In this document: in pieces, positions 2,355 through 26,483 of the stretch
How the letters are laid out: each line of letters begins with the position of its first letter
Numbering within the stretch: position 1 is the first letter of the stretch
IMG/VR virus record: IMGVR_UViG_3300044843_000700
Coordinates: 1 to 64,000 of that record
Reading direction: 5' to 3' (one strand)
Length of the DNA: 64,000 nucleotides
Origin: a virus
Taxonomy: Duplodnaviria; Heunggongvirae; Uroviricota; Caudoviricetes
The notes under the pieces: model-generated
Seen by the model: only the letters and a program-made list of their open reading frames with translations
What the model was told of the DNA's origin: nothing
Databases searched by the model: none
Program-made: the position numbers and the translations under genes

Positions 2355-3452
2355 TTACCATTGCTGGTAAGAAATTTTGCTAGGATCTCTGTCTTCAAGA
2401 GCAGATTTGACCCACCTTTCATCAACAGTATCTCGATAGCATAGGATATGGATTGTTGCGACATCATCCGGATTTAATCTCAGCAATCTTCCGATTCTCT
2501 GAGAAGCTTTTCGCTCGTTTCCATAAGCATGCAGGATTATACCCTCTCTAAGATTAGGGATATTTACACCTTCATTCAACTGTAGTACAGCTGAGAGTCG
2601 GTTTATTTCTCCCTTCTTAAATAGGATGAGGTTATCCTCTGAATCAGGGTTACCGCTATGGTAACTGTGAGAACACAATCTGTCTGCTTGATCCTGCGTA
2701 TTAGCAAAGATTATGTGTTTGTCCGTTATTCGAGAGGCAATTTTTGCTGCTAGTACTTCCTTACTTGGAAAATCCATCATAGACTTCATCCTCATCACAC
2801 TCATGATTTGCTGTTCTTTTTTGTGAGCAGCTGCATCAAGTCTTTGACTCCAGTACTGATAAGTTGCAAGTTCAGACGTATACCATACTTTTCCTTTACG
2901 CTCTACACGCATAGTCTTGTTAGGATCTAGCGAGAGCATATGGATGATGATCTTGTAGTCGTTCAATACCTTATCACCTACTGCATCCTCCATCTCATAC
3001 TCATACACAATAGGGCAAAACTGGGAAACCATCTTGCCTTTTTCGGATTTCTCCCAACGAGGCGGTGTTCCTGTTAAACCTAAGATCTTGCCGGTATGAT
3101 TCCTCAACCATTCTTCGTGAGTATACAATAACGAGTGACATTCATCAAGGTAGACTACATCGTAATCGCTATCCTGTTTTGGAAGAGATAGGTAAGTAGT
3201 AAAGTGCATATGTGGTATAAGGTACTCATAGCCGTATTGTTTAGCCTGTTCTATCCACTCATCGTGTATAGAGATCTTCGGTGCAACAATCAAAAACTTG
3301 GAGTAGTCTGTGTAATTTTCAGCCATGTGCTTAATACCAAGTAAGGTTTTTCCAACACCCATTGATAAATACACACCGGCTCTTCGTAGAGGTAGTACTT
3401 TAGCAAGAGCTTCACCTTGTACGCGGGTTTTGATTTGGTCTCTTGTTTCCAT
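2355..3452 (-). CDS. superfamily-2 DEXH-box helicase
   Basis: Walker A SMGVGKT, Walker B VVYLDECH, motif III GLTGTP, motif VI QRIGRLLR in conserved order. Confidence 0.7.
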   Translation of the reverse strand: METRDQIKTRVQGEALAKVLPLRRAGVYLSMGVGKTLLGIKHMAENYTDYSKFLIVAPKISIHDEWIEQAKQYGYEYLIPHMHFTTYLSLPKQDSDYDVVYLDECHSLLYTHEEWLRNHTGKILGLTGTPPRWEKSEKGKMVSQFCPIVYEYEMEDAVGDKVLNDYKIIIHMLSLDPNKTMRVERKGKVWYTSELATYQYWSQRLDAAAHKKEQQIMSVMRMKSMMDFPSKEVLAAKIASRITDKHIIFANTQDQADRLCSHSYHSGNPDSEDNLILFKKGEINRLSAVLQLNEGVNIPNLREGIILHAYGNERKASQRIGRLLRLNPDDVATIHILCYRDTVDERWVKSALEDRDPSKISYQQW

Positions 3453-3463: not shown

Positions 3464-3802
3464 TTAGTAGATTCTCCTGAAGTATAGTTCAGTTGGCATA
3501 TAACCACCGAACACGAATTTGGTGACATCGCATAACCAGATCTCCTTAGGGAAATCTTTGTTACCATATGTCTTGTATATCGCTCCTCCTTCTTTTGGCG
3601 TATGCTCTTTTAGAGTGAGACGATAGAAATCATCGATTGGTGCTTGAGCTACTTTTAAAGATACCTTATCAGCTCCTAGAGCTAATGCATCCAAAAGTTT
3701 GTCAGCTCCGGCAACCATGGCCAGGTCAGCTTTGCTTCCTGTCCATTCAGGTAGGACGATGAACCATCCTGCTTTTTCCTTTTCAAAGTGTAGTGTTTTC
3801 AT
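3464..3802 (-). CDS. hypothetical protein
   Basis: 112-aa ORF abutting helicase gene. Confidence 0.4.
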   Translation of the reverse strand: MKTLHFEKEKAGWFIVLPEWTGSKADLAMVAGADKLLDALALGADKVSLKVAQAPIDDFYRLTLKEHTPKEGGAIYKTYGNKDFPKEIWLCDVTKFVFGGYMPTELYFRRIY

Positions 3803-4215
3803 GACTCTGCTTTTGGTGTCATATCTGCTACAGGCAATCCTAAAGCTTTGGCCAAAGAAATATCGATAAAAGCCGCTCCTTTATCGCAGACGTCTTCTGT
3901 AAATATTTCTCGAGCTTTGTCCATTCGCAGTACCCATTGATGGCCAGATCGCCAAGGATTATCTTTATCATCAGTCTTTTCTTCTATTACACCGATGATG
4001 AGAAATCCCTTGCTCATTAGGTCTTTACATTGATCGCAGGGTTCAGGAAGAAATCCGATCACCTTGCCATGCATTGCTTCTACCTTTTCAGCCATGGATA
4101 CAGTCAGCCTTGTATTCATCACAATTGGTCCATCATAAATGGTTCCGCATAGACGACAGGCTTCTTTGACTAAAGCTACTCCTAGTTCATTTTTCTTGCT
4201 CATAACTGTTGACAA
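3799..4215 (-). CDS. dCMP/cytidine-deaminase-like zinc-binding protein
   Basis: C-terminal PCDQCKDLM fits the deaminase P-C-x2-C-x3-[LIVM] zinc motif; upstream (M)AE in place of HAE; N-terminal CRLC; divergent. Confidence 0.4.
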   Translation of the reverse strand: MSTVMSKKNELGVALVKEACRLCGTIYDGPIVMNTRLTVSMAEKVEAMHGKVIGFLPEPCDQCKDLMSKGFLIIGVIEEKTDDKDNPWRSGHQWVLRMDKAREIFTEDVCDKGAAFIDISLAKALGLPVADMTPKAES

Positions 4216-4792: not shown

Positions 4793-5809
4793 TTAATTGA
4801 TGTTGCTCTCTATGCTCTCGCGAAGAGATTCGGCCATTGCTGTGTAGTTCTCACTTAAGAGATCATCAAATCGTCCTTTACACTTACCGTTTTTCTCAGA
4901 CCAGTTCATGTTTTCGATTATCTCCAGCTTTGGTTCAGTACCTTCACGATTGATCTTGTAGAAGATCTTAGACTCCTGGTTGTGGGTTTCAAAGCCTACC
5001 ATGAGTACTTCTATTCGATCTGGAGCTTCAGAGGGACGTGCAGTATCTTTGCGATAGTTGCCATTCTCATCAAGGACTTTATCCTTGTCTTCAATGGGCA
5101 CCACACGCATCCAGCCTTCAAAGGCTGTAGCAATCGCGATCACCTTGTGCTGCTTACTAAACTCGCGAAGGATTTCAGCAGCTTGCTCTTTACCTTCATC
5201 ATTTGTAAACAGTTGTCCGATACCGTTGATTATTCCAAACTTAGTTTTACCCTCGCTTCTCTCAAGTACAAACACGATAGGACGAATTTCTTTATGCTCT
5301 TGGAAGAATCCTTCTACAAAGCTTTGAATGTCCGCTCGAAATTGTGTCATGTCTTGGGCGAAGATTTCTTGTACCGTCTTCATTATACTTTTACTCTTTT
5401 TTCTGGCTTCTTTTGCCAGTCGCTTCTTTCGAAGCTCGTTAATACTTAGTTCAGCCATGAGAATGTTTTCATCGTCCGGAGACTTCAACATCATCTCAAA
5501 GTTTGTGCGTTCCTCATCTGTTATAATCTGAGCAGCATGCAGCTTCTCGATTTCTTTTGGTAACAAAATCCTGGCAGTTCTTGTATCACGTTTTATGTGG
5601 TCGTTGTAAACGAACTCATGAGTCTGACCAGCTCTTTTGCCGGTTGCAAACGTGTGCTTATACTTCCACTGATTTTTACCTTTGAGCCAACGCATGAGCT
5701 TTGTGTTGAGCAGAATCTCCAACTTTTGTGGGTCTCCGCCTACCATTTGAGATAACTTGGCTTTCATTACCTCATATTCATCACGAGCAATCTTGTCTTG
5801 AACATCCAT
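4793..5809 (-). CDS. hypothetical protein
   Basis: 338-aa ORF, no recognisable motif. Confidence 0.45.
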   Translation of the reverse strand: MDVQDKIARDEYEVMKAKLSQMVGGDPQKLEILLNTKLMRWLKGKNQWKYKHTFATGKRAGQTHEFVYNDHIKRDTRTARILLPKEIEKLHAAQIITDEERTNFEMMLKSPDDENILMAELSINELRKKRLAKEARKKSKSIMKTVQEIFAQDMTQFRADIQSFVEGFFQEHKEIRPIVFVLERSEGKTKFGIINGIGQLFTNDEGKEQAAEILREFSKQHKVIAIATAFEGWMRVVPIEDKDKVLDENGNYRKDTARPSEAPDRIEVLMVGFETHNQESKIFYKINREGTEPKLEIIENMNWSEKNGKCKGRFDDLLSENYTAMAESLRESIESNIN

Positions 5810-6108
5810 TAGTGACTCCTTTCTCTCCGTTGGAATTTACTAGGAGCTAATCCAGCCATAGCAGATATAGCCATGTAGATGTTTTCGTGATCAGGTGACT
5901 GAAGCATCTTTGATAGATTAGCTTTTTCTTCAGGTGTAATACGCTTTTCAAGTTCAAGCTTTACTAGCGCTTGCCCGATCCTTTCTCTATCGCGACGATT
6001 GCGTTGATAAACATTTGCCCAAATTTCAGGAGATCTACCAGGTACCCACTTAGTCTTCCAGAAGTTCTTCATGACCCTCTTTAGATAAGTCTTACTTGGA
6101 TACTCCAC
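5809..6108 (-). CDS. hypothetical protein
   Basis: 99-aa ORF, 1-nt overlap with upstream gene. Confidence 0.4.
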   Translation of the reverse strand: MEYPSKTYLKRVMKNFWKTKWVPGRSPEIWANVYQRNRRDRERIGQALVKLELEKRITPEEKANLSKMLQSPDHENIYMAISAMAGLAPSKFQRRERSH

Positions 6109-8958: not shown

Positions 8959-9402
8959 TTATTGGTCAAGGGGATATTCGTCCACAGGAAATATTGCAGA
9001 TTCTTCTACATCTGTAGTGTCCTCTCCTTCTTTTCCTGAAGAGTCAAGATAAGTATACTTTACAGTGTACGGCTTCTCTTGAGTTTTGATGAGCTTGGTT
9101 ATCATACAGGTTATTCGACCTTGTTTGATCATACCAGCTTCCGTCATCTTTTCATCGTCTATTCTCCATGTATAGAGACTTGACTTGTTTACGAGTACCT
9201 TTTGCCCGACCTTGAATTTGAATTCATCTTTCAGTCCGCTGAAGGACTTGTACAGTTGTGAGAGACCCACTTCTGTCACCGACAAGTTGTCGACGATTAC
9301 TTGGGATATCAAGTCGGAGTGTTCAGAACCCAGCATCTTTTTTAGCTGGGTTCTGATTTGCTCCTTGTGAATCTTTACCTGTATGTAGTCTTTATTGCTC
9401 AC
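8959..9402 (-). CDS. hypothetical protein
   Basis: 147-aa ORF. Confidence 0.4.
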   Translation of the reverse strand: MSNKDYIQVKIHKEQIRTQLKKMLGSEHSDLISQVIVDNLSVTEVGLSQLYKSFSGLKDEFKFKVGQKVLVNKSSLYTWRIDDEKMTEAGMIKQGRITCMITKLIKTQEKPYTVKYTYLDSSGKEGEDTTDVEESAIFPVDEYPLDQ

Positions 9403-9802
9403 GTATAGGTATTTTACGGGTGTCCGTTCGTTCCAGCTTTAGCTTGCTAGCCCTCTGATCATATTTCAATGTAGCTGAGCTATTGCTAGCAAAGTCTACA
9501 TCAAACATGAATTCACCGGGTATTGCCTCAGGGACATATAAGTACTTAACCTTTCCGTCCTTTGAGGTAAACTTCAACACATAGCTTAGTGATGCTTCTA
9601 GTTTCACATTGAAGTACCTGTGACTTTTTACAGTCTCGGTTAGCTCCAGTGTGCTGTCTGAGTAAAGCAAGAACACTTCGCATTTAATGTTTCTTTCTGC
9701 AAGGTACTCACCGTCCAGAGTGAGAGATTTGACTGCAGTGGGTTCGTTAGCTACTGTAATCATACAGACTAACGAGAGCATGAGTGTAAACAGAGTTTTC
9801 AT
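9392..9802 (-). CDS. secreted protein (signal peptide)
   Basis: MKTLFTLMLSLVCMITVANE signal-like N-terminus; last gene of vWA-AAA-SPFH operon. Confidence 0.45.
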   Translation of the reverse strand: MKTLFTLMLSLVCMITVANEPTAVKSLTLDGEYLAERNIKCEVFLLYSDSTLELTETVKSHRYFNVKLEASLSYVLKFTSKDGKVKYLYVPEAIPGEFMFDVDFASNSSATLKYDQRASKLKLERTDTRKIPIREQ

Positions 9803-9848
9803 TTTGAGTTGATATTATCGGTCTTGTCATAGGCCGGACCGTTAGCCC

Positions 9849-10832
9849 TTACTTAACGTTGATCATAGGGGTACTATTCCCTAATACTGTTGTCGGTAGT
9901 TTTCCGTCCCAGGTTTGTGCTTTGATGTACTCTACATATAGAGCATTAAGCTCTTTCTGTTTGAGTCGCATGGCTTCGGCTACACCTCGGGCTTCGATAA
10001 TGTCTGCTTCTGCTTTACCGGATGCACGAATAACTGCTTGGGCTGAGTCACCTCTTGCTTCGGCAATCATCTTCTTAGCATTTGCTTCAGCAACCAGAGC
10101 TTCTTGCATTTTTGCTTGCGCTTGTTGTACAGCTTGAGTCTTCGCGTTAATAGCATCCTTCAATGCATCAGGCGGAACAATGTTTGTCCTAAGCTGACTT
10201 ACGATAAACCATTTCGATACACGCTTATTACACTCGGTTATGATAGCAGATTCAAACTCTTCTCGTTTGTTGAAGATATCATCTACCGTCCACCGGTTAG
10301 CTACATCGTTAACGGATCCAACAATCGCTGTCATCAACCATCCCTTTTCGATTCCTTTGATGTCCAATCGTAGTTCAGAGAACATATCTCCTACTGCATC
10401 GGCCTTCAATGAATAGTTAAAGGTCGGCTTAATGGTAGCTTGGAATCCACCTTTGGTTATCACAATCTGGTTATCGTATTCAATGTGTTGCTGAAAGGTA
10501 GGGAACTCATACAAGTTCTCCGTCCAGCTGTTGTATACAACCCATCCTGTTTTGTATGTGTAGTCGGATACACCGCGTTCATTACCGGTTAATTTTACCT
10601 TTATACCGATGTGTCCAGCATCTACCCTTTCAAGGGAATAAGGCTGAATCATTCCGGTCAGGAGTCCTACTACAACAATGGCGATCGGAGTAAACAACCA
10701 CTTTGGATTGAAAGGTCGGGTAACATCGCCGTAACGATCTTTTTGTTCCGGTCCGAACGCATTACTTCGTGTGGATACAAGCCATCCGGCAGCCACAACG
10801 ATTGAGAGCAGGATAATAATCAATGAGATCAT
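9849..10832 (-). CDS. SPFH/band-7 (stomatin/prohibitin/HflKC-like) membrane protein
   Basis: N-terminal TM helix then SPFH core and Ala/Glu-rich coiled coil AQAKMQEALVAEANAKKMIAEARGDSAQAVIRASGKAEADIIEARGVAEA. Confidence 0.6.
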   Translation of the reverse strand: MISLIIILLSIVVAAGWLVSTRSNAFGPEQKDRYGDVTRPFNPKWLFTPIAIVVVGLLTGMIQPYSLERVDAGHIGIKVKLTGNERGVSDYTYKTGWVVYNSWTENLYEFPTFQQHIEYDNQIVITKGGFQATIKPTFNYSLKADAVGDMFSELRLDIKGIEKGWLMTAIVGSVNDVANRWTVDDIFNKREEFESAIITECNKRVSKWFIVSQLRTNIVPPDALKDAINAKTQAVQQAQAKMQEALVAEANAKKMIAEARGDSAQAVIRASGKAEADIIEARGVAEAMRLKQKELNALYVEYIKAQTWDGKLPTTVLGNSTPMINVK

Positions 10833-10836
10833 GTGC

Positions 10837-11079
10837 TTAGATTTTGAGGATTTTGATTAATAACTTTACCGCGTATACCATTGCCAGCACATCTACCAAT
10901 AGAATAACTATGGTAGCAACTGTGGACAGGAACAATGGCATCTCCCTACTTACGCAGTATTCAAAGTAGAGCCCGTTCAGAACGATAACAATGATCGCTC
11001 CTACGAGAAATAAGAACACGTTTTTCATAGTGTAAAAAAGAGTATGGGCTAGCCTAATTGCCAGCCCATCCTCTTGCAA
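10837..11079 (-). CDS. small two-TM membrane protein (NfeD-like partner position)
   Basis: 80 aa, two hydrophobic helices; 4 nt upstream of SPFH gene as in nfeD-spfh operons. Confidence 0.4.
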   Translation of the reverse strand: MQEDGLAIRLAHTLFYTMKNVFLFLVGAIIVIVLNGLYFEYCVSREMPLFLSTVATIVILLVDVLAMVYAVKLLIKILKI

Positions 11080-11081
11080 TA

Positions 11082-12626
11082 TTAATTGGCTTTGACAGCC
11101 GCTCCATTCTTAGAAGCTGCTTCAGAAACATTCATGCTGGCGTTCTTAACCGTGATGGTCATGTCACCAGTACGTGGTTCTTCCACTTCTTCTTTCATCA
11201 GTTTCAAGTGATGCTTCATGGAATCAACTGCTGCTTTTACCAGGTCATCATTTACTGCGCCACGCTTCTTGCAGAGTTTAACTGCACGCTTAGCAATTTC
11301 AGCAACAACTGCACCAGGACAATCCGGAGTACGATCAGCAAGCACGTTGTAATCCAACACCTTTTCTGCATCCAATGGAGCCAGATAACGATGGTAGATT
11401 TCTGCAACGGCAACTTTGTCCGGGTTCTCAAAGTTCACCACAAGGTCAATACGACCTGGGCGGCGAAGAGCCGGGTTGATACGCTTCTCATGGTTGGTTG
11501 TAAAGATTACAGTAAGGTTGTTACCCTTAGTTTGTACACCATCCAGAGTATTCAGGATTTTGTTCATGTCAGCATCACGCTTGGTACCTGCACCGATTTC
11601 ATCCACGTCCTCAAGGAACACGATGCACGGCTGGTAATTCTTAGCTTGGCCAAGAAGCATGTGGAATACATCTGCATCTTTGCAGTAGAAGTACGCCATA
11701 CCTTTTGTAAGACCGGCTGAACCAATACGCATAGCTGTTTCTGTTTTACCGTTTCCATAACCACCTGAGAAAAGATAGCAACGCTTGCCATCTTCACCAA
11801 GATCGTCAATGATGAAGTTGCGAACAACAGTGTCCACGTCTTCATTCAATACAATCTTGTCGGATACCTTCATCTCGAAGATATCGAAATCCAAAGAGAT
11901 CTCACCCCATGGTGATGTCTGCTTTGTAACGGTGATTGCACGTCCGCGATAGATCGATTCGGTATCCAGGATCTTCTGGATCAGATCGAAAAATTCTTTT
12001 GCCTCATGAGCATAGCGCTTCTTCACAGTTGCGCTGATGTGGCTCGGTCCTACTTCGACCACTGCATCTTCCCAAACAGTTGCAGTGAACTGTCCGTAGA
12101 AACAGGTCTCAGTAATCTTCTTGCCGTCTTTGATGTCAACGACAATCTCAATGTCTGTAGGGCGCTGAGTACCGAAGAAGGTGTGCACAGTCTTACCTTG
12201 GATCCAACCAAAGTGACGTTCTGCAGCTTTCTTTACTGCAACAAGGACATCTCGCCAGTTCCATTCACCGAACATTCTGTCCACATTAATCACCTGTTCT
12301 TCGTCATCCCACTGACGCTTCAATTCCTTTGCTGCCTGCAACTTATTCATTGTGGCTGGAAGAATGATACGCTTAGTTCCAGTAGAGAACTCAGTCTCTG
12401 CTTGGTTCTTCTTGATTTCTTCCTCCATCATTTTGATGATGGCCTCATCGGCTGCTTTTTCACCGATAGTTGCAGCAAGCAGCGCGTGCGCTGGGTGCTT
12501 TCGCACTTGTTCAATTTTCATGCTTAGATTTTTAGATGGTTTTTCGAGGAACGAGACTTCCTTCAGAGCTTTGAGTTGTTCCTCTTTACTCAAAGATGAA
12601 AAACAAGAGAGCTGTGGTGAAGTCAC
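11082..12626 (-). CDS. AAA+ ATPase (classic clade) with about 280-aa N-terminal extension
   Basis: Walker A GGYGNGKTETA, Walker B CIVFLEDVDE, sensor-1 FTTN, second region of homology INPALRRPGRIDLVVNF. Confidence 0.8.
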   Translation of the reverse strand: MTSPQLSCFSSLSKEEQLKALKEVSFLEKPSKNLSMKIEQVRKHPAHALLAATIGEKAADEAIIKMMEEEIKKNQAETEFSTGTKRIILPATMNKLQAAKELKRQWDDEEQVINVDRMFGEWNWRDVLVAVKKAAERHFGWIQGKTVHTFFGTQRPTDIEIVVDIKDGKKITETCFYGQFTATVWEDAVVEVGPSHISATVKKRYAHEAKEFFDLIQKILDTESIYRGRAITVTKQTSPWGEISLDFDIFEMKVSDKIVLNEDVDTVVRNFIIDDLGEDGKRCYLFSGGYGNGKTETAMRIGSAGLTKGMAYFYCKDADVFHMLLGQAKNYQPCIVFLEDVDEIGAGTKRDADMNKILNTLDGVQTKGNNLTVIFTTNHEKRINPALRRPGRIDLVVNFENPDKVAVAEIYHRYLAPLDAEKVLDYNVLADRTPDCPGAVVAEIAKRAVKLCKKRGAVNDDLVKAAVDSMKHHLKLMKEEVEEPRTGDMTITVKNASMNVSEAASKNGAAVKAN

Positions 12627-12684
12627 AGCTCTCTCGCAATATCATGATATCCCTTCTGTTGCCAAGCGGGATAATACTCCGATC

Positions 12685-14082
12685 TTATTCAGTTACCTGG
12701 ATGAGTCTGTATCGATCAGTATTCACTGTATCCATCATCAGTTGTTCAGGAGAGTAGATCTCGCCTTTCAATACTGACTTCAAGATAGAGGGACTGAATC
12801 CGGATACAAGACCGATTCCTTTATCGCTCTTCTGTGCAGGAGAGTTGCCGATACGACCGTTTACATTCCAGAAGATGATTTCCGGCATCTTGTAACCAGC
12901 TGCCTGGTACTTCTGACGGATTACATCCAGGTTTGTACCTGATGCGCGGTATCTACAAGCTGAATCAAACTCCATATCAGAGATGATCAAGATCTTGGTA
13001 GGCATTTCGTCCTCAGAGATCTTCTCTCTGATTGCACTGTTGAGGATTAAGTCAAAGGTCGACTGCAGATTTGTGGTACCACCCCATGGAGCTTGATTCA
13101 ACTGACGCATCCTTTGAGCAAGTGACCCTTTCAGGTATTGCATCTCAGGTTTTTCAGAGAAAGTCAAGAAGGCATCTTTGAAGATACCTTTGTTACGCTC
13201 AGAGATATAAATCCCCAGTGCTACACTTACATCCATAGGCAATCCCATCATACTTCCAGATACATCACACACCGGAATGATGCGTTCTGTTGATCCTTCC
13301 ATATAATCTGGTAGGTTATTCCACTGTGCTTCGACTGCACGCTCATTCTCCCCATTATTAATTGCTTGATACAATTGATGAGGGAATAATACTGATGCGT
13401 TGATCTTAGCTTCACCTGAATGTACAGCCTCAATATACGCTTTCATACGTTCTTCATCGTGTTTGAAAAATGCCTTGCGGTATTTATTCATCGCGATAGA
13501 AGGTACTGCTTCGTACTTGATACCTTTCCATTCTCGGTTACACATCTGCGTTTCCACTACCTTAGTCATAGCCACTAGCTTCTTACGAAACTCCTTAGGT
13601 GTCATACCAAGATAACGATGCATGGCTACAAACCATGGACCTTTGCGCGGGAACCATTTGGCCAAGAGATTCGCATTAGAGGATTCCTCAAGAGAATGCT
13701 TCAACCAGTTAAGGTTATTCTCGTTTGGCTTCTCTATCGCGAACACATCCTTCCAATACCCAAACTCTGGTACATGTACCATTAGTTTGTCTGCGACCTC
13801 AGGATATTTATCCACAATGTGTCGCATGATTGTATGAAAGAATCGGCGCTCACCTGCACCACCACGGGCATCACGAGACCAGAATAAAATCTTGGCTGCG
13901 ATATCTGCATCTTGAGCATATGCTCTTTCGAAGATGGTGATGATAGACTTCTCGTCCATATTACGAGATGCTCCTGCAAGGAAGAACATATCGAGACAGA
14001 AGTTCAAGGAGGTCGAGTGAGTAACTGCTCCTTTATTTGTTGTAGCGTCATAGCTACGTGCTGCATTAACAAGTCTGCTCAT
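12685..14082 (-). CDS. von Willebrand factor A (MIDAS) domain protein, DUF2828/Ro60-like
   Basis: DVSGSM MIDAS motif followed by conserved T and D (ILIISDMEFD); helical N-terminal half; architecture resembles Ro60/Rsr (helical TROVE-like plus vWA). Confidence 0.55.
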   Translation of the reverse strand: MSRLVNAARSYDATTNKGAVTHSTSLNFCLDMFFLAGASRNMDEKSIITIFERAYAQDADIAAKILFWSRDARGGAGERRFFHTIMRHIVDKYPEVADKLMVHVPEFGYWKDVFAIEKPNENNLNWLKHSLEESSNANLLAKWFPRKGPWFVAMHRYLGMTPKEFRKKLVAMTKVVETQMCNREWKGIKYEAVPSIAMNKYRKAFFKHDEERMKAYIEAVHSGEAKINASVLFPHQLYQAINNGENERAVEAQWNNLPDYMEGSTERIIPVCDVSGSMMGLPMDVSVALGIYISERNKGIFKDAFLTFSEKPEMQYLKGSLAQRMRQLNQAPWGGTTNLQSTFDLILNSAIREKISEDEMPTKILIISDMEFDSACRYRASGTNLDVIRQKYQAAGYKMPEIIFWNVNGRIGNSPAQKSDKGIGLVSGFSPSILKSVLKGEIYSPEQLMMDTVNTDRYRLIQVTE

Positions 14083-14672
14083 TACGGCTTAGGTTTAATG
14101 GTTGTTACTTGAAGATTGAGGGAGAACCCACCACCTTTTCACGGGCGGTGGGGTTGACTACATAACAGGATACGGTACCCACCTTAGCTACTTGAGCAAA
14201 GGGTTCTCCCAGGTTTGCCCTTTCGGGCTCTCTGATTTTTAGTTTTCAGAGTGCTGATGTATCCATTATAGTCAATAGGTGCAGGATGCCACTAAGCCAT
14301 ATTTCAAATGGGTTTTTAGTGCTGCAAGCATCCTTTAAAAGGGGCGGACTCCACCGGGTTTGCTTAAAAGGCAAGTGGTTTGTATGTGCTGTTCGGAGTC
14401 CTTAAGAAGAGGCTGAGAGTGCCGAGTGAAGTACGAAACCTCACCCGACTTTTTCTCCCAGCAATTTCTCCTGGTTTAGACTTGACCACCTTGTGGTTGT
14501 TGTCACGGATCCAGGTATCCGGCAGCCTTCGCTCGAATGGCGTCTAGGCGGCTAAACTTCGTGCATTGCCGACACATAGTGTTTCGTCTTAATTTTCAAA
14601 GACTCATCAGGGCAACTTTAAGAATAGGGCCGGCCATCACTCCGGCCCTTTCTCAGCGAATGTTGATTTCAA

Positions 14673-15017
14673 TTATCCCTTACGTCCACCCAAGATAGCC
14701 TGAATAAAACGTGGAGGTTGGTGATCACGCTGCAGATTAGCTGTTATGTGTGATACATAGAACAACTCATTTGCATGGACGCACTCTTTACTTACGATAG
14801 CAAGCACTTCAACAATGTTTTCCGACTTGTGAAATACTTCGTGTGTAAGTTTGTGTAGGTGTTCAGCTCTCTCCGGAGAGATAGCTAAACTCTCAGTAAG
14901 ACTTCCGGTTTCTCTTTCGATCTCGATGACAATGAGACTACCTTTGTCTTGAGGTTCTACCTTAATGTATCTGGGACGCTTGAAGAGCGATTCCCAGAAT
15001 TTCTTGATCTTTTTCAT
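14673..15017 (-). CDS. hypothetical protein
   Basis: Track ORF 14673..15104 trimmed to internal ATG (MKKIKKFWESLF...) to avoid overlap with upstream gene. Confidence 0.35.
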   Translation of the reverse strand: MKKIKKFWESLFKRPRYIKVEPQDKGSLIVIEIERETGSLTESLAISPERAEHLHKLTHEVFHKSENIVEVLAIVSKECVHANELFYVSHITANLQRDHQPPRFIQAILGGRKG

Positions 15018-15036
15018 AGGCTTAGGTTCTGCGAAT

Positions 15037-15453
15037 TTACGCAACTTTTTTGAGACGACAATGATTAAGTGTGGTGTACGGTCGGTTGTTGAGAAAGTCT
15101 TCAACGCTTTTATCTTCTATGATCAAAGGCATTCTATGATGGAATGGTACAACTATACCTTGAGCGGGAGCTGTTATTACAGCGAACTCTGGAACATTGT
15201 TGTATAGTACTCCGATATAGAGATTGCTTTGATCATCTCGGATAAATTGCGCGTCCTTCTCCCAGAAAGAATCCACTGATAGGACACCTCTGTTAGCACT
15301 GATCTTCTTCCATACTGTGGGTATAGATTCAGATCTTACATTATACTGGGATCCATCGTTGAATCCCCAGATGCCGCTGGCTTTACCAAGCCTGGTCAGA
15401 AAGGCATGAATCTGACCCGGTGACATCTTACTGCCTTTTAATTTCACACACAT
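15037..15453 (-). CDS. compact SRAP (SOS-response-associated peptidase, YedK/HMCES-like) domain protein
   Basis: Starts M-C (Cys2 nucleophile position), YNV, FWEK, and ITAPAQGIVVPFHHRMPLII matching SRAP HxRMP[VL]I block; 138 aa is shorter than typical 200-230. Confidence 0.5.
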   Translation of the reverse strand: MCVKLKGSKMSPGQIHAFLTRLGKASGIWGFNDGSQYNVRSESIPTVWKKISANRGVLSVDSFWEKDAQFIRDDQSNLYIGVLYNNVPEFAVITAPAQGIVVPFHHRMPLIIEDKSVEDFLNNRPYTTLNHCRLKKVA

Positions 15454-15455
15454 GG

Positions 15456-15827
15456 TTACGAGTATTTGATCTCGGTTTCCATGAACGCCATCACCACATC
15501 CTTTTTATCTTTAGGAACTGGCTGAAGACGGACATAGATACTTTTAATCTTGCACTTGTGTTCTTTACAAGCTTTCTCGATGGTGTCTGCAATCCTTAGA
15601 GCGAGACATTCACAAGAAGTCATCGGTTGCTGAAACACTTTCTTTACAGCTTCATGAATCACCAGATGATCTATCACGAATCCTTGGTGGTCAAGCTTTG
15701 GTGCAACAGTAACACGAGTTTCGTAATCGTATACTTTATGACCGACAGCTTTACACTGATTACTGCTGGAGTGCCTTGCTCTACATCGTCCTTTGCGGTT
15801 GAGTGTTAGTTGTATCTGCTTTTTCAT
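15456..15827 (-). CDS. possible QueD/6-pyruvoyl-tetrahydropterin-synthase-like protein (weak)
   Basis: H...C-x3-GH followed by beta-strand-like YDYETRVTV and GFVIDH; degenerate relative to Cx3HGH. Confidence 0.25.
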   Translation of the reverse strand: MKKQIQLTLNRKGRCRARHSSSNQCKAVGHKVYDYETRVTVAPKLDHQGFVIDHLVIHEAVKKVFQQPMTSCECLALRIADTIEKACKEHKCKIKSIYVRLQPVPKDKKDVVMAFMETEIKYS

Positions 15828-15854
15828 GAGTTGAGGTTTGAGTTGGAGGAAGAC

Positions 15855-16379
15855 TTAGTTTTCATCATCGAATACAAGAGGCTCTTCCTTTTCCTCTTCT
15901 TCTTCCGGAAAGTTCAGGTCAACATCATCCAAGCTTTTCTCTTGCTTGTCTTCACCTCTGAGCTTGGCTTCCATCTGCTCAATCATCGCATTCATCTTTT
16001 CCTCGTAGATTTTTCCTACTTGTTTAAGGAAGGTTACCTCAGCTCCGATAACGTAGTTGCCATAAGCAAGCTCGTTAGGATGAACGCATATTTCGCTTAC
16101 GTCTACCATAGCTTTATGAATATTTTTATGCTTAAGGAGACTCTTCATAGCGAGTATTCGTATCTCTAAACTTCTTTCTTCCGGAATACCCAGAGCATCG
16201 TTTAGATTATCTGCACTCGGGTTGATTTCTTCTACAGGATATTCTCCTTCGTCCCATATAGGGTCTAATTCTTGCATGATGACAGTTTTGATTGTTAGTA
16301 AAAAGGACAGCGCCGGCATAACCATCACCATAATAGTTAGCCGGCGCGCCCAATAATTTAGAATGGTAGATCTTGCCAT
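15855..16379 (-). CDS. membrane protein with acidic C-terminus
   Basis: N-terminal TM (LTIMVMVMPALSFLL), C-terminal EEEEKEEPLVFDDEN. Confidence 0.4.
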   Translation of the reverse strand: MARSTILNYWARRLTIMVMVMPALSFLLTIKTVIMQELDPIWDEGEYPVEEINPSADNLNDALGIPEERSLEIRILAMKSLLKHKNIHKAMVDVSEICVHPNELAYGNYVIGAEVTFLKQVGKIYEEKMNAMIEQMEAKLRGEDKQEKSLDDVDLNFPEEEEEKEEPLVFDDEN

Positions 16380-17773
16380 TGATCTTCTTCTTTGTGCGCA
16401 TGTTCAACCGTCTTGTCATGAGGGTTGCGTATGGACAAGAAGAATTTATCAACGAGATCGTGTAGTTCTTGCGGTGCAGCTTCGTTACGGTATCCTCTTA
16501 GCTGAGCATTCCTGTAATCGTATAGGTTCTTACCTACTGTAACGCGTGCAACTTGAAGAGTATATCTCTTCTCGTTGTGTAGGATAGAAATGATTGCGCA
16601 TGATCCGGAGTTAATCTGACTACCGTATGTTGCCACACAGTGTTGTTGAATATCGGATTCTTCACGCAGTCTTTCTCTTGTAGTTATTAACTCCGAGTTA
16701 GGGATTGGCCACTTCTTGTACATCTTGAGGTAGTTCTTTGCTACCCTGATAGGACTAAGTTCTTTGCGGGCAATCTCTCTACTCATCTTCTGGTGTTCAT
16801 CTTCGATTCTGATCTTAGATCTTACAGCAAGACTTAGTTTTTTGCCAAGCTTGATGTGATCTTTTACCCAGTCTCGAATCAACCATGATGATGATGGATC
16901 ATTCAGCATGTATAAAGCCATCAGTCTATAGATAGCTTCACCTCTGTCATACCATCCGGAATCACCTTGGAATAATCCTCCAACAGTGGAGTCTTTAGAT
17001 TGGACAACCCACATGTTGAGTGTGGTTATCTCATTCTTATTGCGGAGTACACGAAGAACTTGATAGAGGGTGTAAGGTCGATATGCAGCACGAAGACGCT
17101 TAGGTATCTTAATACCCATACGTTTCTCGATTACTTCATACTCATTAGTTGTTCCCTCGTAGTATTTGAGTGTGATTGGTAGTGTGATGTCTTCTTCGTA
17201 CCGGTCCAGATCATATAACTTTTCAGCAAAAAGCTTTGTGAGTTTATCTGTCCCACTGCTTTCGCTAATCAAAGCTCCTGTTACAGGCATTACTTTAACC
17301 TTCATACTTTTCTTGTAAGGATGTATGAATGTGTAAAGCTTATCGCTGTAGCAGAAGATGGGACGATTCTTTTTTAGCGGGTAATACTTTCTAATCTTGT
17401 GATTGTAAGCCATACCTACTTCGAAGTCTGAGAGAGATATCTTTCCGGTGTACTTATCATATAGCACTGTCAAAAAGTGTTTGGTAACACGCTTAAACTG
17501 CCATGATGGTTCTGGTTGGAGAGAGATAGGATCTCTGAGATGTTCAGGAGTTACCTTGGTATCTGAGTGGTTCTCCTTAATCATCTTGATCTTCTCATCG
17601 TATTTAGAATCGGTAACAGTCTGATAGGTGTAAGTAATAACTTCGTCAGTCTCCGTCCTCTTATGTAGAGGATTTCTCATACCCTCAATCTTACGACATA
17701 TCCAGGCAAACAGCTCCATCCTTTTGGGATCAGGTGCTGTCTTAAGTATAGGTTTGAACATTGTGTTTTCCAT
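16358..17773 (-). CDS. PcfJ-like protein
   Basis: C-terminal RERLREESDIQQHCVATYGSQINSGSCAIISI matches PcfJ hallmark (L.EE...HCV..Y). Confidence 0.45.
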   Translation of the reverse strand: MENTMFKPILKTAPDPKRMELFAWICRKIEGMRNPLHKRTETDEVITYTYQTVTDSKYDEKIKMIKENHSDTKVTPEHLRDPISLQPEPSWQFKRVTKHFLTVLYDKYTGKISLSDFEVGMAYNHKIRKYYPLKKNRPIFCYSDKLYTFIHPYKKSMKVKVMPVTGALISESSGTDKLTKLFAEKLYDLDRYEEDITLPITLKYYEGTTNEYEVIEKRMGIKIPKRLRAAYRPYTLYQVLRVLRNKNEITTLNMWVVQSKDSTVGGLFQGDSGWYDRGEAIYRLMALYMLNDPSSSWLIRDWVKDHIKLGKKLSLAVRSKIRIEDEHQKMSREIARKELSPIRVAKNYLKMYKKWPIPNSELITTRERLREESDIQQHCVATYGSQINSGSCAIISILHNEKRYTLQVARVTVGKNLYDYRNAQLRGYRNEAAPQELHDLVDKFFLSIRNPHDKTVEHAHKEEDQWQDLPF

Positions 17774-17800
17774 AGAGTGCGGGTTGAGTTGGTAAAACTA

Positions 17801-18112
17801 TTACTTGATGTAAACACTCACCTCTTTCTTGCTCGGATTACTTACCTCGGTGATAAGAGCTCCTTTGTACTTAGCAAGTAAGTAGGTGTACAGTTCTAGA
17901 TAGCTAGGCTTAAGATCTTGTGATCCGAATCCTTGGGCGGAAGACATCTCTTTCTTGTAGTGTTCTTCCTTGAAGACGAAAAGCAATCGCTTCTCACCTT
18001 TCTTTGCAGGCTTTACCTTTGCTGCGGCATTGACCTGTTTCTTGAGTTTATCAATAAGTTTCACGGTGAATGGTTTAATGGTTAATTGAAAACCTGCTAT
18101 ACATACCTCCAC
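17801..18112 (-). CDS. hypothetical protein
   Basis: 103-aa ORF. Confidence 0.4.
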   Translation of the reverse strand: MEVCIAGFQLTIKPFTVKLIDKLKKQVNAAAKVKPAKKGEKRLLFVFKEEHYKKEMSSAQGFGSQDLKPSYLELYTYLLAKYKGALITEVSNPSKKEVSVYIK

Positions 18113-18927
18113 CCATGAGCATCACGACATCATGTGTTACAGGAGTATATCTATAGCAGGTGTAATCTCATAGGGAGTGTGATGAGTGAGGGCGGTTGCC
18201 CATCCCCTCCTCCCCAATGGGTATTGCCGGCTGTCATCCCGCTTTAGCCTGATCAGCTAACTGCGATGCACCAGCGGGGCTCTCACAGACTTCGTATCCA
18301 GCGATCGTCATCACCGGTAACACCGGCAATTATTTAATGATCTTTCCGTAGACAGCAGTCAGAATCTTCTATGTCCCTTATGGTTGAGCCTATGGTGATC
18401 ATGCGAACTTCCATTTTAAATAATTTACCACCGAAGACCAGTTATCGCCTAACGTCATTTTCACTGGTTCGGGAATGCTCTCCTTGCGGCATATTAGGCA
18501 TCCTCTGTGGTAAACTTATTCTTAATAATATCCACCACCTCAACAATATCGCTGAACTTCTTCACAAGACAGAGGCTAGCAGTGGTTCACTCGTCCGGCC
18601 AGAACTGCTCTAACCGGCTTCGGCTCGGCATCGTCAGCAGAATGTTTGTACGAGTCGGCATTACCCGAACCTTTTACGCATGTCTTACTTAATGGGGTTG
18701 CCGACGTGTCTACCTGCAGGTGAGTACCTCGGGTGTTTCCACGTACCTAGTGCGGACTCGTTCGATGTACCACAATGGTAACACTTACTTGAGTAACTGA
18801 CGTCACGACTTGTTGCTGAGCGAACCTAGACCGGTCGGCAATATCTTTGCCCGAGGGCGGACTTCGCTTTACGACTTACTACGCGTGCGACTTACTGCAG
18901 GCGAGCCGTGTCCTCGAGTGTTTCATG

Positions 18928-19164
18928 TTAAAGGTTTTGAACTCCGTGATCTGTGATACTGAAATCTCCACATATGATATCCGGACTGTTGCATCCGCAG
19001 TTATCATCGCTAGGTTCAAGATGCAAACAACCTTTCTCATCTATTGTATATGAGTCAGTATATGCGTGACGAGTGTGCTTACCGTAGCCGTATTGAATTT
19101 CGTATCGTTTCATCTTGCCCACACATCCTGTAAGGACAAGACACAAGATCAATAACTTTTTCAT
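18928..19164 (-). CDS. lipoprotein
   Basis: MKKLLILCLVLTGC lipobox, Cys-rich mature part. Confidence 0.5.
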   Translation of the reverse strand: MKKLLILCLVLTGCVGKMKRYEIQYGYGKHTRHAYTDSYTIDEKGCLHLEPSDDNCGCNSPDIICGDFSITDHGVQNL

Positions 19165-19598
19165 CGTTCAAGATGTAGTATTGCTGTGTTAGGTCCCGTG
19201 GTAAAGGTCAACTCAAGTACACTGGATGTTAATGTTCTTATGTAGTAGAGCGTACCAAATAGATCAAGATGTGTAGGTGTCGCCTTCCAATATGTTACTG
19301 CGTAGACACATGCCAATCCCTGATATCCATCTTTGTAGTTGTTACCTACAGTGGTATTAAGTGTGGTCATTAAGTCGAGTCTGCAGTTTACACTGTCAGT
19401 GCGTGTGATAATGCTTGTTGGAATAACATTCCCGGTACTGTCAAGCAGTGCTTCGTATGTTACAATCCATGAGCCAGACAAGCTAGTCTCAGTTGCATTC
19501 AGGGTACTTGTAGGCGTGGGAGTGGGTGTAGGTGCCGGCTCCTTATTACAAGCAGTAAGAGCCATGATGGCTAAGCTAAGTATGAGTATCTTTTTCAT
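19161..19598 (-). CDS. lipoprotein with Pro-Thr linker
   Basis: MKKILILSLAIMALTAC lipobox then PAPTPTPTPTSTLN linker. Confidence 0.55.
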   Translation of the reverse strand: MKKILILSLAIMALTACNKEPAPTPTPTPTSTLNATETSLSGSWIVTYEALLDSTGNVIPTSIITRTDSVNCRLDLMTTLNTTVGNNYKDGYQGLACVYAVTYWKATPTHLDLFGTLYYIRTLTSSVLELTFTTGPNTAILHLER

Positions 19599-19704
19599 AA
19601 TGATTTGAGTTAATGATTAGGTAAAAATGGCGCCCCGATCCTAGCCCAGGCGCCTGGTGAGGTTGCGACCCTCACGTCTTGACTCTTTTAGTGAGTCGGA
19701 TATC

Positions 19705-20430
19705 TTACTCAGGTAGATCATCTATGGGTGTTTTACCCATGAGGATATCAAGCATACCACCCAGACCCATTTGGGTTTTGAATTCAGCTTGTCTTCTAAT
19801 CTCCCTGATAATGGTGGTCTGTACAATTTCCGTTGTAGCAGGTGTATTCTCAGCGTCTATGTATTCCTGATAACGATCAGCAAATAAGAGCAACTGGTTT
19901 TCCATCTGCTCGGTGAGCATCATCACATGATTTACGTCATGTACTGCCGGGTTTTGTGCATCACCATGGTGATTACAATCAAATCCGAATACTACGAATC
20001 CTTCAGGTGATACCGATAAGTCAGCGACATACGCTTTCTTAATGGCCATTTTCTTTTCAATGTACTGCATTGGATCAGAGCCCTTATCCTTTTCCCATTC
20101 AGCATAGAAGTTTGCTATTGCGTCACGGTATCTTTTGGATATGTTCTCTTGATCAGGCACGCCTTCCAATTCACAGTATGTAATGTTACCATGGATGGCA
20201 AGACTGTTAAGTCCTGGTGCATCATATGAACCCCACCAATCTTTTGGTACTGAGTTCTTTGGTAGTATTACATATCCACATAGGTGTGATTCAGGCATAA
20301 ATCTGCGGTGCATTTCAATCAGGTCAGGTGGTAATCCCTCGGGCATTTTGTGCTCGATCTTTATAACACACCTGTTCTTATATACCCACTTCTCGTGTGG
20401 ATATGTAAAAGGATAGAAGTCGTATTCCAT
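19705..20430 (-). CDS. hypothetical protein
   Basis: Track ORF 19705..20487 trimmed to MEYDFYPF start to remove overlap. Confidence 0.45.
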   Translation of the reverse strand: MEYDFYPFTYPHEKWVYKNRCVIKIEHKMPEGLPPDLIEMHRRFMPESHLCGYVILPKNSVPKDWWGSYDAPGLNSLAIHGNITYCELEGVPDQENISKRYRDAIANFYAEWEKDKGSDPMQYIEKKMAIKKAYVADLSVSPEGFVVFGFDCNHHGDAQNPAVHDVNHVMMLTEQMENQLLLFADRYQEYIDAENTPATTEIVQTTIIREIRRQAEFKTQMGLGGMLDILMGKTPIDDLPE

Positions 20431-26314: not shown

Positions 26315-26387
26315 GGAGCTATAGCAAAGACGGTCTATGCGTGGGACTGAAAATCCTGAGATCCTGGTTCGATACCAGGTGGCTCCA
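26315..26387 (+). tRNA. tRNA-Phe (GAA)
   Basis: Cloverleaf by hand: acceptor GGAGCTA/TGGCTCC, anticodon loop CTGAAAA, T-arm CCTGG-TTCGATA-CCAGG. Confidence 0.8.
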
Positions 26388-26393
26388 CTGATT

Positions 26394-26477: not shown

Positions 26478-26483
26478 CAACAT

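Follow-up and report, generated by a model that had tools for sequence, protein, structure and literature searches.

A ribozyme-headed array of conserved structured RNAs beside a Ro60-fold protein gene in a Caudoviricetes genome

Genes and RNA elements at the locus

We analyzed a stretch of 64,000 nucleotides from a virus of the class Caudoviricetes (positions 1 to 64,000 of the IMG/VR record IMGVR_UViG_3300044843_000700; hereafter designated the window), focusing on a gap of 590 nt (14083-14672) bounded by the stop codon of a 143-aa open reading frame (ORF) at 14673 and the ATG of a 465-aa ORF at 14082. Both flanking genes are on the minus strand, and the downstream one encodes a protein with the domains DUF2828 and DUF7788. 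Rather than a spacer or a plain leader, the gap holds a series of conserved structured RNAs headed by a ribozyme, with the structure confined to the minus (gene) strand. The elements of the locus, in the order in which the minus strand is read, are as follows.

14673-15104, minus strand: gene for the 143-aa upstream protein (ORF list)
14627-14648, minus strand: conserved hairpin GGGCCGG-AGUGAUG-GCCGGCCC, located after the stop codon of the 143-aa ORF and before the hammerhead (sequence)
14565-14616, minus strand: putative type I hammerhead ribozyme, predicted to cut between C14571 and G14570 (Rfam Hammerhead_1 and covariation)
14402-14570, minus strand: 5' domain, beginning with GGCAAUGCACGAAGUUU at the predicted cut (alignment A7 and reading of the sequences)
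14343-14405, minus strand: module M1, 14401-14346 from stem to stem (56 nt), stem GGACUCCG/UGGAGUCC (covariance model R2 and regular-expression scan)
14280-14338, minus strand: module M2, 14334-14283 from stem to stem, stem AGGAUGCU/GGCAUCCU (R2)
14113-14270, minus strand: module M3 (158 nt), the terminal pseudoknotted domain, ending 38 nt before the ATG (covariance model R1)
12685-14082, minus strand: gene for the 465-aa DUF2828+DUF7788 protein (Pfam, PHROG, AlphaFold2 and Foldseek)
11082-12626, minus strand: AAA+ ATPase gene, directly downstream of the DUF2828 gene (Pfam AAA, E=2.4e-14)

Coding content and folding of the gap

No ORF of 60 aa or longer was found between 14082 and 14673, as the first-pass annotation of this DNA had claimed from the sequence alone. 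Each of the six frames of the gap contains 7-12 stop codons, at least two of them TAA, so that a stop reassignment as in some gut phages cannot rescue any frame; a recoded protein-coding ORF was rejected, as read-through of TAG or TGA opens none. The minimum free energy of the minus-strand gap is -188.8 kcal/mol, compared with -161.4 +/- 5.9 kcal/mol in 100 dinucleotide shuffles (z = -4.65). The four helices that had been named in the first-pass annotation all exist and all lie within minus-strand RNA elements: GGACTCC...GGAGTCC is the stem of M1 (14401-14346), CCCACCACC...GGCGGTGGG is the hairpin H3 (14152-14127) and GCCCtttcGGGC the hairpin H1b (14228-14217) of M3, and GGGCCGG...CCGGCCC is the hairpin at 14648-14627. 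Of the proposal of a structured non-coding RNA on either strand, the structured RNA thus stands and the choice of strands does not, only the minus strand being structured.

Could the gap nevertheless be a spacer with chance hairpins, a plus-strand terminator or a place of hidden small protein genes? The hairpin at 14627-14648 is followed by TTTCTC on the plus strand, and minus-strand ORFs of 41-42 aa exist. However, a terminator scan of 13900-15300 yielded no terminator-like site on either strand, and the intrinsic terminator that had been suspected there comes down to a T-run that is merely TTTCTC. The small genes are opposed by stops in all frames. An AT-skewed spacer had been considered as well, but the gap is richer in GC than its flanks (0.46-0.50 vs. 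0.40-0.45), its folding energy is far from that of the shuffles, every element covaries in the related phages, covariation being found in every helix tested, and whole modules are inserted or deleted between relatives that are 92-97% identical. Even the hairpin between the upstream gene and the hammerhead is kept with compensatory changes in the related loci L005, L051 and L052 (GGGUCGG/CCGACCC in L005 and GGACCCG/CGGGUCC in L052). We regard this explanation as hardly credible.

A sigma-70-like match (GTGGCA-16-TATAAT, 10/12; 14292-14265, minus strand) was noticed in the spacer between M2 and M3, and was set aside as probably a chance match because TATAAT is not conserved in the relatives.

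A hammerhead ribozyme at the head of the array

At gathering thresholds, Rfam found only tRNAs in the whole window. When 1 kb around the gap was scanned permissively with Rfam, the one meaningful match was Hammerhead_1 (RF00163) at 14616-14565 with 26.7 bits (gathering score, 34) and an E-value of 4.6e-4; the match appeared only in this 1-kb scan, having been filtered out when the whole window was scanned at E<=1. The RAGATH-1-hammerhead model (RF03152) gave 18.7 bits against a gathering score of 56.3, and there was no match to the RAGATH, ROOL and GOLLD models of Rfam in the gap. The scan with Rfam covariance models had been proposed in the first-pass annotation with Y RNA and YrlA in mind; it matched neither of them and revealed instead the hammerhead, which that annotation had missed together with the modular, pseudoknotted anatomy of the RNA whose 5' end the hammerhead would define.

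The window sequence reads GUUGCC-CUGAUGA-GUCUU(UGAAAAUU)AAGAC-GAAA-CAC(UAU)GUG-UC/GGCAAU (the slash marks the predicted cut), with stem I GUUGCC/GGCAAU, stem II GUCUU..AAGAC and stem III ACAC-UAU-GUGU, then C17. The core is complete, comprising CUGAUGA (14610-14604), GAAA (14585-14582) and the GUC cleavage triplet (14573-14571). We aligned 11 hammerhead copies from the relatives of the phage and from crAss-like phages (alignment A10). The core was invariant in all of the 11 copies, and 97.9% of the paired cells were complementary, as opposed to 26-43% with the partners slid. Compensatory changes were found in 7 of the 15 pairs (stem I, 4/6; stem III, 2/4; stem II, 1/5), and stem I was wholly replaced among the copies (GUUGCC/GGCAAU, AGUGUA/UGCACU, AUUGCA/UGCAAU and AAUCCC/GGGAUU). 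We treat 14616-14565 as a genuine hammerhead despite its sub-threshold Rfam score, and predict self-cleavage from its sequence.

A block of ~57 nt containing the hammerhead is 85-100% identical in four crAss-like Suoliviridae, being ~90% identical to one in the crAss-like phages cr272_1 and cr131_1; nothing else in the gap resembles deposited phages at the DNA level. The crAss-like copies sit in ORF-free gaps crowded with matches to hatchet, hammerhead, RAGATH-14 and twister-like ribozymes. For instance, the crAss-like phage cr53_1 (L004, 1313-4270) has a 2.2-kb ORF-free gap with three hatchet ribozymes (85-95 bits), RAGATH-14 (206 bits) and one hammerhead, all on the gene strand, and cr272_1 has a RAGATH-1 hammerhead of 73 bits.

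Exchange of ribozymes and other processing elements in related loci

The relatives comprised 34 IMG/VR loci, which were fetched via the downstream protein, and eight contigs of closer relatives, which were added later (handles beginning with L). A hammerhead was found at the same position in L051, L052, L054, L049, L006, L033 and L042, with the motif GCAYGWAGUUU 6 nt downstream. In L019, L055, L056 and L057, a pistol ribozyme replaces the hammerhead before GCAYGWAGUUU. The pistols of L019, L055 and L056 scored 42.8, 50.4 and 44.7 bits in Rfam, respectively, all above the gathering score of 34.5, and that of L057, truncated by the contig end, scored 34.1 bits against the same 34.5. The pistols end 5-6 nt before GCAYGWAGUUU, and their cut is predicted at the position equivalent to that of the hammerhead. 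In L056, a hammerhead remnant (stem III and the 3' strand of stem I, 1893-1935) lies directly upstream of the intact pistol (1934-1994), an arrangement that looks as if one ribozyme class were being exchanged for another.

A 97%-identical relative, L005, has a 613-nt GIY-YIG homing-endonuclease cassette inserted into the loop of stem II. With the cassette comes a new CUGAUGA 5' half, by which a compact hammerhead (3388-3452) is regenerated beside the old 3' half, and the TGA stop of the endonuclease gene (2802-3401) is located inside CUGAUGA. Two unrelated ribozyme classes at one boundary and the repair after an insertion argue for selection, apparently for cleavage precisely where the downstream RNA begins. 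L005 also displayed weak matches to group I introns (20-29 bits; 5098-5374 and 5904-6057) inside and after the DUF2828 gene, which fit with the protein match stopping at residue 369.

Other potential processing elements lie further along the array. Between the modules in L027 (2426-2541 and 2788-2908) and L057 (344-439), we detected tRNA-like genes with enlarged anticodon loops (insertions of 27-55 nt in the anticodon arm; 33-49 bits for Rfam tRNA), and these may serve as RNase P/Z processing signals. Together with the conserved element described next, they hint that the modules are separate RNAs. The window carries, far from the gap, a sequence resembling these elements (2186-2353, minus strand); it matched Rfam tRNA with 32 bits (gathering score, 29) over 168 nt, apparently as a tRNA-like sequence with an insertion of ~100 nt, and was not called by ARAGORN.

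The second kind of element reads U-AAUGCACC..CUCAC-UUCCCAAGG-GUGAG..(stem)..GAGUGCAGAGGG, the layout being UAAUGCAYC, a hairpin with the loop UUYCCAAGG, a variable stem and GARUGCAGAGGR. It was found at module boundaries in L012, L013, L017-L020, L027, L029, L033, L042 and L053, and has covarying helices and likely a pseudoknot between loop and tail. It follows the last stem of M3 and separates M3 from the gene in L027, L042 and L053, and directly precedes M3 in L012, L013, L017, L018, L020 and L029. The following copies were located.

L053, 2415-2475
L042, minus strand, after the RNA
L027, ~3125-3240 and 3725-3955
L033, 3485-3595
L019, 3625-3725

This element is absent from the window. It looks twister-like in comparison with the O. 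sativa sequence, but Rfam found no twister, twister-sister or other family, even in a scan of 116 nt, and we leave it unclassified. The element is a candidate for a new processing element or a ribozyme variant.

Two alternative explanations bear on these ribozymes and boundary elements. The first regards the gap as a ribozyme-rich, RAGATH-type island of the kind seen in crAss-like phages, with the DUF2828 gene as an incidental neighbor and the ribozymes having a role of their own, be it that of selfish or mobile elements or the punctuation of transcripts. The near identity of the hammerhead block (~90%) to crAss-like copies that occur without the locus, the packing of ribozymes in the ORF-free gaps of those phages and the insertion of homing endonucleases at the locus are consistent with it. 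However, searches of the crAss loci with R1 and R2 detected no modules, the modules follow DUF2828 into phage families whose loci lack ribozymes (such as P100, MiniLon and Staphylococcus phages), and the ribozyme class changes while the downstream RNA stays. We thus consider such an island improbable. In the second explanation, the RNA is excised at both ends by ribozymes, circularized by an RtcB-type ligase and acts as a circular RNA, the idea being that the 5'-hydroxyl and 2',3'-cyclic phosphate ends are substrates of RtcB. It would be in line with a hammerhead or pistol at the 5' end, with the conserved unclassified element after the last stem in L027, L042 and L053, and with an RtcB-like ligase encoded ~3 kb from the locus in Listeria phage P100. 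Nevertheless, the window has no 3' element, that of the relatives matches no Rfam ribozyme in the 116-nt scan, and complementarity of the two ends was not noted. A circular RNA is, in our judgment, very improbable.

The 5' domain and the modules

The RNA downstream of the predicted cut comprises the 5' domain, M1, M2 and M3. The helices of the 5' domain and M3 are listed below (all minus strand).

14552-14546/14528-14522: PA, 7-bp helix around PB
14542-14530: PB, hairpin CGC-CAUUCGA-GCG (CRC-CAUUCGA-GYG across relatives)
14521-14506 and 14496-14486: PC and PD, hairpins of the 5' domain
14462-14455/14419-14412: PE, long-range helix GCUGGGAG/CUCUCAGC enclosing a further hairpin
14447-14423: PF, hairpin of the 5' domain
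14264-14259/14173-14168: Pa of M3, GGAUAC/GUAUCC, the closing stem, which crosses Pb
14210-14202/14128-14120: Pb of M3, GGGAGAACC/GGUUCUCCC, its 3' strand lying beyond Pa, after a GC-rich GNRA-type hairpin
14251-14230, 14228-14217, 14201-14182 and 14152-14127: H1, H1b, H2 and H3, inner hairpins of M3

For the first 75 nt of the 5' domain, which hold its first three helices, 14 loci were aligned (A7); 88.2% of the cells were paired vs. 21-45% with the partners slid, and 9 of the 15 pairs were changed on both sides.

M1, M2 and M3 share a common design, in which (A)AAG is followed by a stem of 6-9 bp free in sequence, N(0-3), CAGCA and a variable A/U-rich loop, and the 3' strand ends with ..CU and then G (..CUG); CCGCA replaces CAGCA in a few copies. 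The loop starts with AA-CAGCA in M1, and with UG-CAGCA in M2, which includes the conserved UGGCUUAGU. R2, a covariance model of the short modules that was built from 23 training sequences with M1 and M2 of the window among them, matched M1 with 38.0 bits (E=6e-6) and M2 with 49.1 bits (E=1.3e-8), and these two were its only matches in the window. In the 391 kb searched at E<=0.1, R2 found 72 matches, 49 of which were not training sequences. Seventy of the 72 matches were on the gene strand just upstream of DUF2828, the exceptions being L036 5688-5735 and L035 8797-8861, and there were none in the crAss-like and unrelated contigs. Across the 72 copies, the stems were 94.3% paired vs. 26-42% with the partners slid, and 7 of the 8 pairs covaried, albeit the pairing percentage is partly by construction, because the stems were first collected by requiring complementarity and their alignment (A9) was fitted to the model. 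This circularity is answered in part by the 49 non-training matches, the slid controls and the stem Pa of M3, which was left out of its model. Three stem pairs are near-invariant (G-C, U-A and C-G), as expected for a helix that is read by a protein.

R1, the model of M3, yielded a single match in the window (164.9 bits) and one match per related locus, amounting to 28 matches with E<1e-3, and M3 is located 30-60 nt before the start codon in 28 loci. Including the pseudoknot, M3 was 94.6% paired vs. 46-62% with the partners slid, and 22 of the 28 pairs were changed on both sides. These counts were made on a model-based alignment (A6), which replaced an alignment by MAFFT (A3) that was one column out of register between two groups of phages. 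Pa covaries although it was not in R1, one of its pairs being GC in 16 rows and AU in 12.

Among relatives that are 92-97% identical, whole modules have been gained or lost; L005 and L051 possess an extra CCGCA module as compared to the window. A pattern scan of IMG/VR (GGATACATCAGCAN{50,80}GTATCCTG) recovered one new true locus (L042) and four chance matches in coding sequence.

The Ro60-fold protein and the neighboring genes

The 465-aa protein belongs to PHROG 850 ("RNA-binding protein", E=1e-142), and Pfam recognized in it only DUF2828, DUF7788 and a weak VWA_CoxE. It did not match Pfam TROVE (PF05731) at E<=10, and neither phmmer nor a profile search against PDB found Ro60 or any other solved structure. 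The first-pass annotation had called the protein a Ro60-like von Willebrand factor A (vWA) protein. We built an AlphaFold2 model from 55 homologues, which had a predicted local distance difference test score of 87.2 and a predicted template modeling score of 0.88, and displayed a helical TROVE-like ring over residues 1-255 and a Rossmann-like vWA domain over 268-453. The metal ion-dependent adhesion site DxSxS (D273-x-S275-x-S277) is invariant among the homologues. The four best full-length matches of Foldseek, with E-values from 2e-8 to 7e-7, were all Ro60/TROVE structures, namely 9kop and two chains of 9l5y (Ro60 of Thermus phage phiLo) and 2nvo (Rsr of D. radiodurans); the remaining matches covered the vWA domain only. 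As the best full-length PDB matches of the model are phage and bacterial Ro60, the label "Ro60-like" is justified at the level of the modeled fold. The mycobacteriophage members are named "Ro-like RNA binding protein" in GenBank.

The AAA+ ATPase gene is kept as a neighbor of the DUF2828 gene in the closest relatives but not in others, being present in L051, L052, L053 and L056, and absent in L049, L055 and L057. Further along the minus strand lies a gene for an SPFH/Band 7 protein (9849-10832). In 9000-20000, the sole DNA-level match to deposited phages other than the hammerhead block is a 95-nt segment (9423-9517), which is 94% identical to 2482-2576, unannotated, of Flavobacterium phage vB_FspS_snusmum9-1 and hints at a Bacteroidota host. 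The window contains 23 tRNA genes on the plus strand (26315-28937), the strand opposite to the Ro60-like operon; the DUF2828 gene is directly beside a tRNA array in many cultured phages and 12 kb away from it in the window.

Upstream of the gap, the 143-aa protein matches no Pfam or PHROG family. Its ORF overlaps a truncated-looking gene with an SRAP (SOS-response peptidase) domain (15037-15453, minus strand), beyond which is a gene for a PcfJ-like protein (16358-17773, minus strand). Genes for PcfJ-like and SRAP proteins recur upstream in L049, L052, L053 and L056.

RNA modules beside the DUF2828 gene in other phages

By tblastn against INPHARED, the protein was found in at least 711 deposited phage records of very different families. 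We read ten loci of cultured or named phages, which were hand-picked rather than systematically sampled, and found stem-CAGCAA modules beside the DUF2828 gene in nine of them.

Listeria phage P100: three modules (two short, one long), upstream of the gene
Felix O1-like coliphage REP11: three modules, between tRNA genes just downstream of the gene
Mycobacterium phage MiniLon: three modules, just downstream of the gene
Staphylococcus phage S-CoN_Ph7: three modules, just downstream of the gene
Bacillus phage Thrax2: five modules, within and after the upstream tRNA array
Campylobacter phage NCTC12673: two modules, between the tRNA array and the gene
Sinorhizobium phage phiM12: two modules with stems of 14 and 21 bp, upstream of the gene
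Cronobacter phage S13: one long module, downstream of the gene
Uncultured 735-kb phage LR756501 (L062): one module, ~2.1 kb upstream (R2, E=7e-4)

When stems of at least 7 bp were counted over the ten loci, there were 32 modules on the gene strand and 5 on the opposite strand, the shuffle mean being 6.75. In the long modules of MiniLon and phiM12, a T arm is followed by an acceptor-like hairpin and a D arm, which is the permuted order typical of YrlA; only the long module of MiniLon gave a match to YrlA, a partial one (37.7 bits vs. a gathering score of 69, E=7e-5). These YrlA-type arms tie the family to the bacterial Y RNAs, and the part with the stem and CAGCA is a feature of the family's own.

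In P100 (L060), a ROOL match (920-1471; 86 bits, E=4.6e-16, gathering score 99.1) was observed between two tRNA genes, ~1 kb upstream of the CAGCAA modules and the DUF2828 gene. The RtcB-like "tRNA splicing ligase" of this phage is encoded ~3 kb downstream of the locus.

Proposed function of the array

We infer that the modules are ribozyme-processed, Y-RNA-like partner RNAs of the Ro60-fold DUF2828 protein, and assign this interpretation a probability of roughly 0.6. The anatomy, the covariation, the exchange of processing elements, the modeled fold of the protein and the joint occurrence of RNA and gene in distant phages are shown by the analysis; that the RNA cleaves itself in vivo, that single modules are set free, that the protein binds them and what they do for the phage are postulates. 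The gap would be a minus-strand non-coding RNA locus that is probably co-transcribed with the flanking genes. As there is no terminator in between, the transcript of the upstream gene would run on into the hairpin and the hammerhead. Cleavage between C14571 and G14570 would then free the upstream mRNA with a 2',3'-cyclic phosphate end and leave the downstream RNA with a defined 5'-hydroxyl end. The released RNA would consist of the 5' domain, M1, M2 and the pseudoknotted M3, and its modules would most likely be ligands of the Ro60-fold protein that act like Y RNAs. The protein would bind at the closing stem, with its fixed pairs, and at the CAGCA motif, and an effector or tethering function would lie in the variable loops or extra domains. 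Maturation would be achieved by the hammerhead here, and by the pistol or tRNA-like elements elsewhere.

Several observations weigh against this interpretation. The hammerhead scores below the gathering threshold of its family (26.7 vs. 34 bits for Hammerhead_1). Neither Y_RNA (RF00019) nor YrlA (RF02553) matched the gap in the 1-kb Rfam scan even at E<=10, and the motif of the window, CAGCA(A) at the start of the loop with AG..CUG at the base of the stem, is unlike those of Y RNA and YrlA; both the published Ro60-binding helix (bulged GGUCCGA) and the GNCGAA motif of YrlA differ from CAGCA. The pairing percentage of the short modules is in part circular, and the ten phage loci were hand-picked. 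KVP40, the tenth locus, has only a small CAGCAA hairpin over the ribosome-binding site (RBS) and ATG, which resembles an operator more than a free RNA. Finally, no ribozyme, tRNA or terminator lies between M3 and the DUF2828 ATG in the window. Because nothing separates the two, a leader role of M3 in cis is possible, and M3 may stay attached to the mRNA in this phage.

The last two points lead to the main rival, in which the array is a cis-acting 5' leader of the DUF2828 mRNA and the hammerhead merely trims a polycistronic transcript; the modules, above all M3, would stabilize an mRNA with a 5'-hydroxyl end or serve as an operator for autorepression. Most of the close relatives resemble the window in having no terminator or processing element between M3 and ATG, M3 keeps its distance of 30-60 nt from the start codon over 28 loci, and the KVP40 hairpin overlaps both RBS and ATG. 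On the other hand, the modules that lie downstream of the gene or between tRNA genes in S-CoN_Ph7, MiniLon and REP11 speak against a leader. In L027, ~870 nt intervene between M3 and the gene, a further conserved element is placed there in L042 and L053, and tRNA-like elements split the array elsewhere. Moreover, one operator would not need several different modules per genome. We therefore consider a leader unlikely to be the explanation, albeit both readings may be true together. The Y-RNA-like transcript that had been hypothesized in the first-pass annotation is preferable to a plain leader, because RNAs of the same design accompany the protein family in many phages; this part of the hypothesis holds, and a match to the Rfam models of Y_RNA or YrlA does not.

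We know of no RNA partner identified for the DUF2828-type Ro60-fold proteins of phages. If the modules are partner RNAs of the protein, as we favor, they provide a concrete RNA candidate for these "RNA-binding proteins", one that can be searched for by sequence. The carriers of DUF2828 include model and therapeutic phages (Felix O1-like, P100/A511-like, Twort-like and KVP40-like phages, and mycobacteriophages), so that the candidate RNAs open work on binding, structure and counter-defense in cultivable systems. In addition, the role of phage self-cleaving ribozymes has been an open question since the discovery of twister, pistol and hatchet, and the locus suggests a job for them. Since one and the same RNA boundary can be occupied by either of two unrelated ribozyme classes or by tRNA-like elements, we argue that these are devices of RNA maturation.

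Comparison with known systems

It is established that bacteria and mycobacteriophages carry genes for Y-RNA-like RNAs beside Ro60 (PMC4201824). In the Thermus phage phiLo, two Y-RNA-like RNAs upstream of the Ro60 gene bind Ro60 and form a RYPER-like complex with Ro60 and the host polynucleotide phosphorylase (PMC12135203). In the literature searched, we found neither CAGCA modules nor a pseudoknotted version of them described, nor any Y-like RNAs that are processed by ribozymes, and no Rfam family reaches its threshold on the phage modules. The RNAs in the window resemble Y RNA and YrlA in that they are small non-coding RNAs adjoining the gene for a Ro60-fold protein, occur in several different copies per genome, and appear to have 5' and 3' ends paired in a stem with conserved positions, the rest being a large variable loop; the long modules of MiniLon, phiM12, S13, REP11 and Thrax2 furthermore contain a T arm. 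In contrast to the known Ro60 systems, the window protein is of DUF2828/DUF7788 and not of Pfam TROVE, the likeness being at the fold level only. Unlike Y RNA and YrlA, the window modules lack a tRNA-like domain, and M3 is pseudoknotted. Their apparent sizes deviate as well (~80-130 nt for Y RNA and YrlA vs. ~55 nt for M1 and M2 and 158 nt for M3), and the 5' end of the window RNA would be made by a self-cleaving ribozyme.

Among the phage hammerheads including RAGATH-1, the window copy has the full core (CUGAUGA, GAAA and the UC cut site) and three covarying helices, and its stem II and loop (GUCUUUGAAAAUUAAGAC) are identical to those in cr272_1 and cr131_1. Like RAGATH-1, it is preceded by a hairpin and an A/U linker, albeit the hairpin is of a different sequence. 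What sets it apart from the other phage hammerheads is its position, fixed relative to a specific downstream RNA, and its interchangeability with pistol. The RAGATH and ROOL/GOLLD regions are comparable to the gap in that they, too, are long, lack ORFs and combine self-cleaving ribozymes, tRNAs or tRNA-like elements with structured RNAs on the gene strand, but the RNA of the window type is tied to one particular protein family.

The Felix O1-like phage Bas63 encodes gp130, a Ro60-like protein upstream of a tRNA array that was reported in a preprint to counter the Ppl defense system, and the authors proposed some of the "tRNAs" as Y RNAs of gp130, with no partner RNA identified (10.1101/2024.10.10.617714). 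The "RNA-binding protein" of REP11, 37% identical to the window protein, is likewise Ro60-like in fold and directly upstream of a tRNA array. From the genus and gene order, gp130 is inferred to be an orthologue of the window protein, and by this analogy the report on gp130 suggests a counter-defense role. The window phage is unrelated to Bas63 and differs from it in having an AAA+ ATPase neighbor and ribozyme processing.

The only Rfam family that the phage modules repeatedly approach is the Dictyostelium Class I RNA (RF01414), with 33.3 bits in L013, 31.3 in L056, 30.8 in L016, 29.3 in L053 and 27.5 in L012 against a gathering score of 41.5; M1 and M2 of the window, which have CAGCAC, did not match it. 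The two share a length of ~55-60 nt, a variable A/U-rich loop, a terminal covarying stem with a conserved 5' G and an adjacent motif (..UUACAGCAA), and a 3' end of ..CUG(U), in which the C is paired to the 5' G (PMC7919456). In both, a motif stands directly after the 5' strand, namely the 11-nt CCUUACAGCAA in Dictyostelium and YUUACAGCAA or NN-CAGCA in the phages (PMC7919456), with the core CAGCA(A) in common. Class I RNAs were reported to be restricted to Dictyostelia, to have their own DUSE promoters and to be bound by CIBP, a protein with an RNA recognition motif (PMC7919456). The likeness between the phage modules and Class I RNA may be convergence. DUF2828 occurs in eukaryotes too, and DDB_G0281243, a protein whose function is uncharacterized, was reportedly among four proteins pulled down with the Class I RNA DdR-21. 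We tentatively raise a bolder scenario, which we consider doubtful as a whole: the RNAs with a stem, a (UUA)CAGCAA loop and a stem ending in CUG would be one ancient family of DUF2828 ligands, spread over phages of Bacteroidota-like, Firmicutes, Actinobacteria and Proteobacteria hosts, matured by hammerhead, pistol or tRNA-like punctuation, and homologous to the Class I RNAs of Dictyostelium. If this homology is true, a class of RNAs that has been an orphan for 20 years would be joined to the world of Ro60 and Y RNA.

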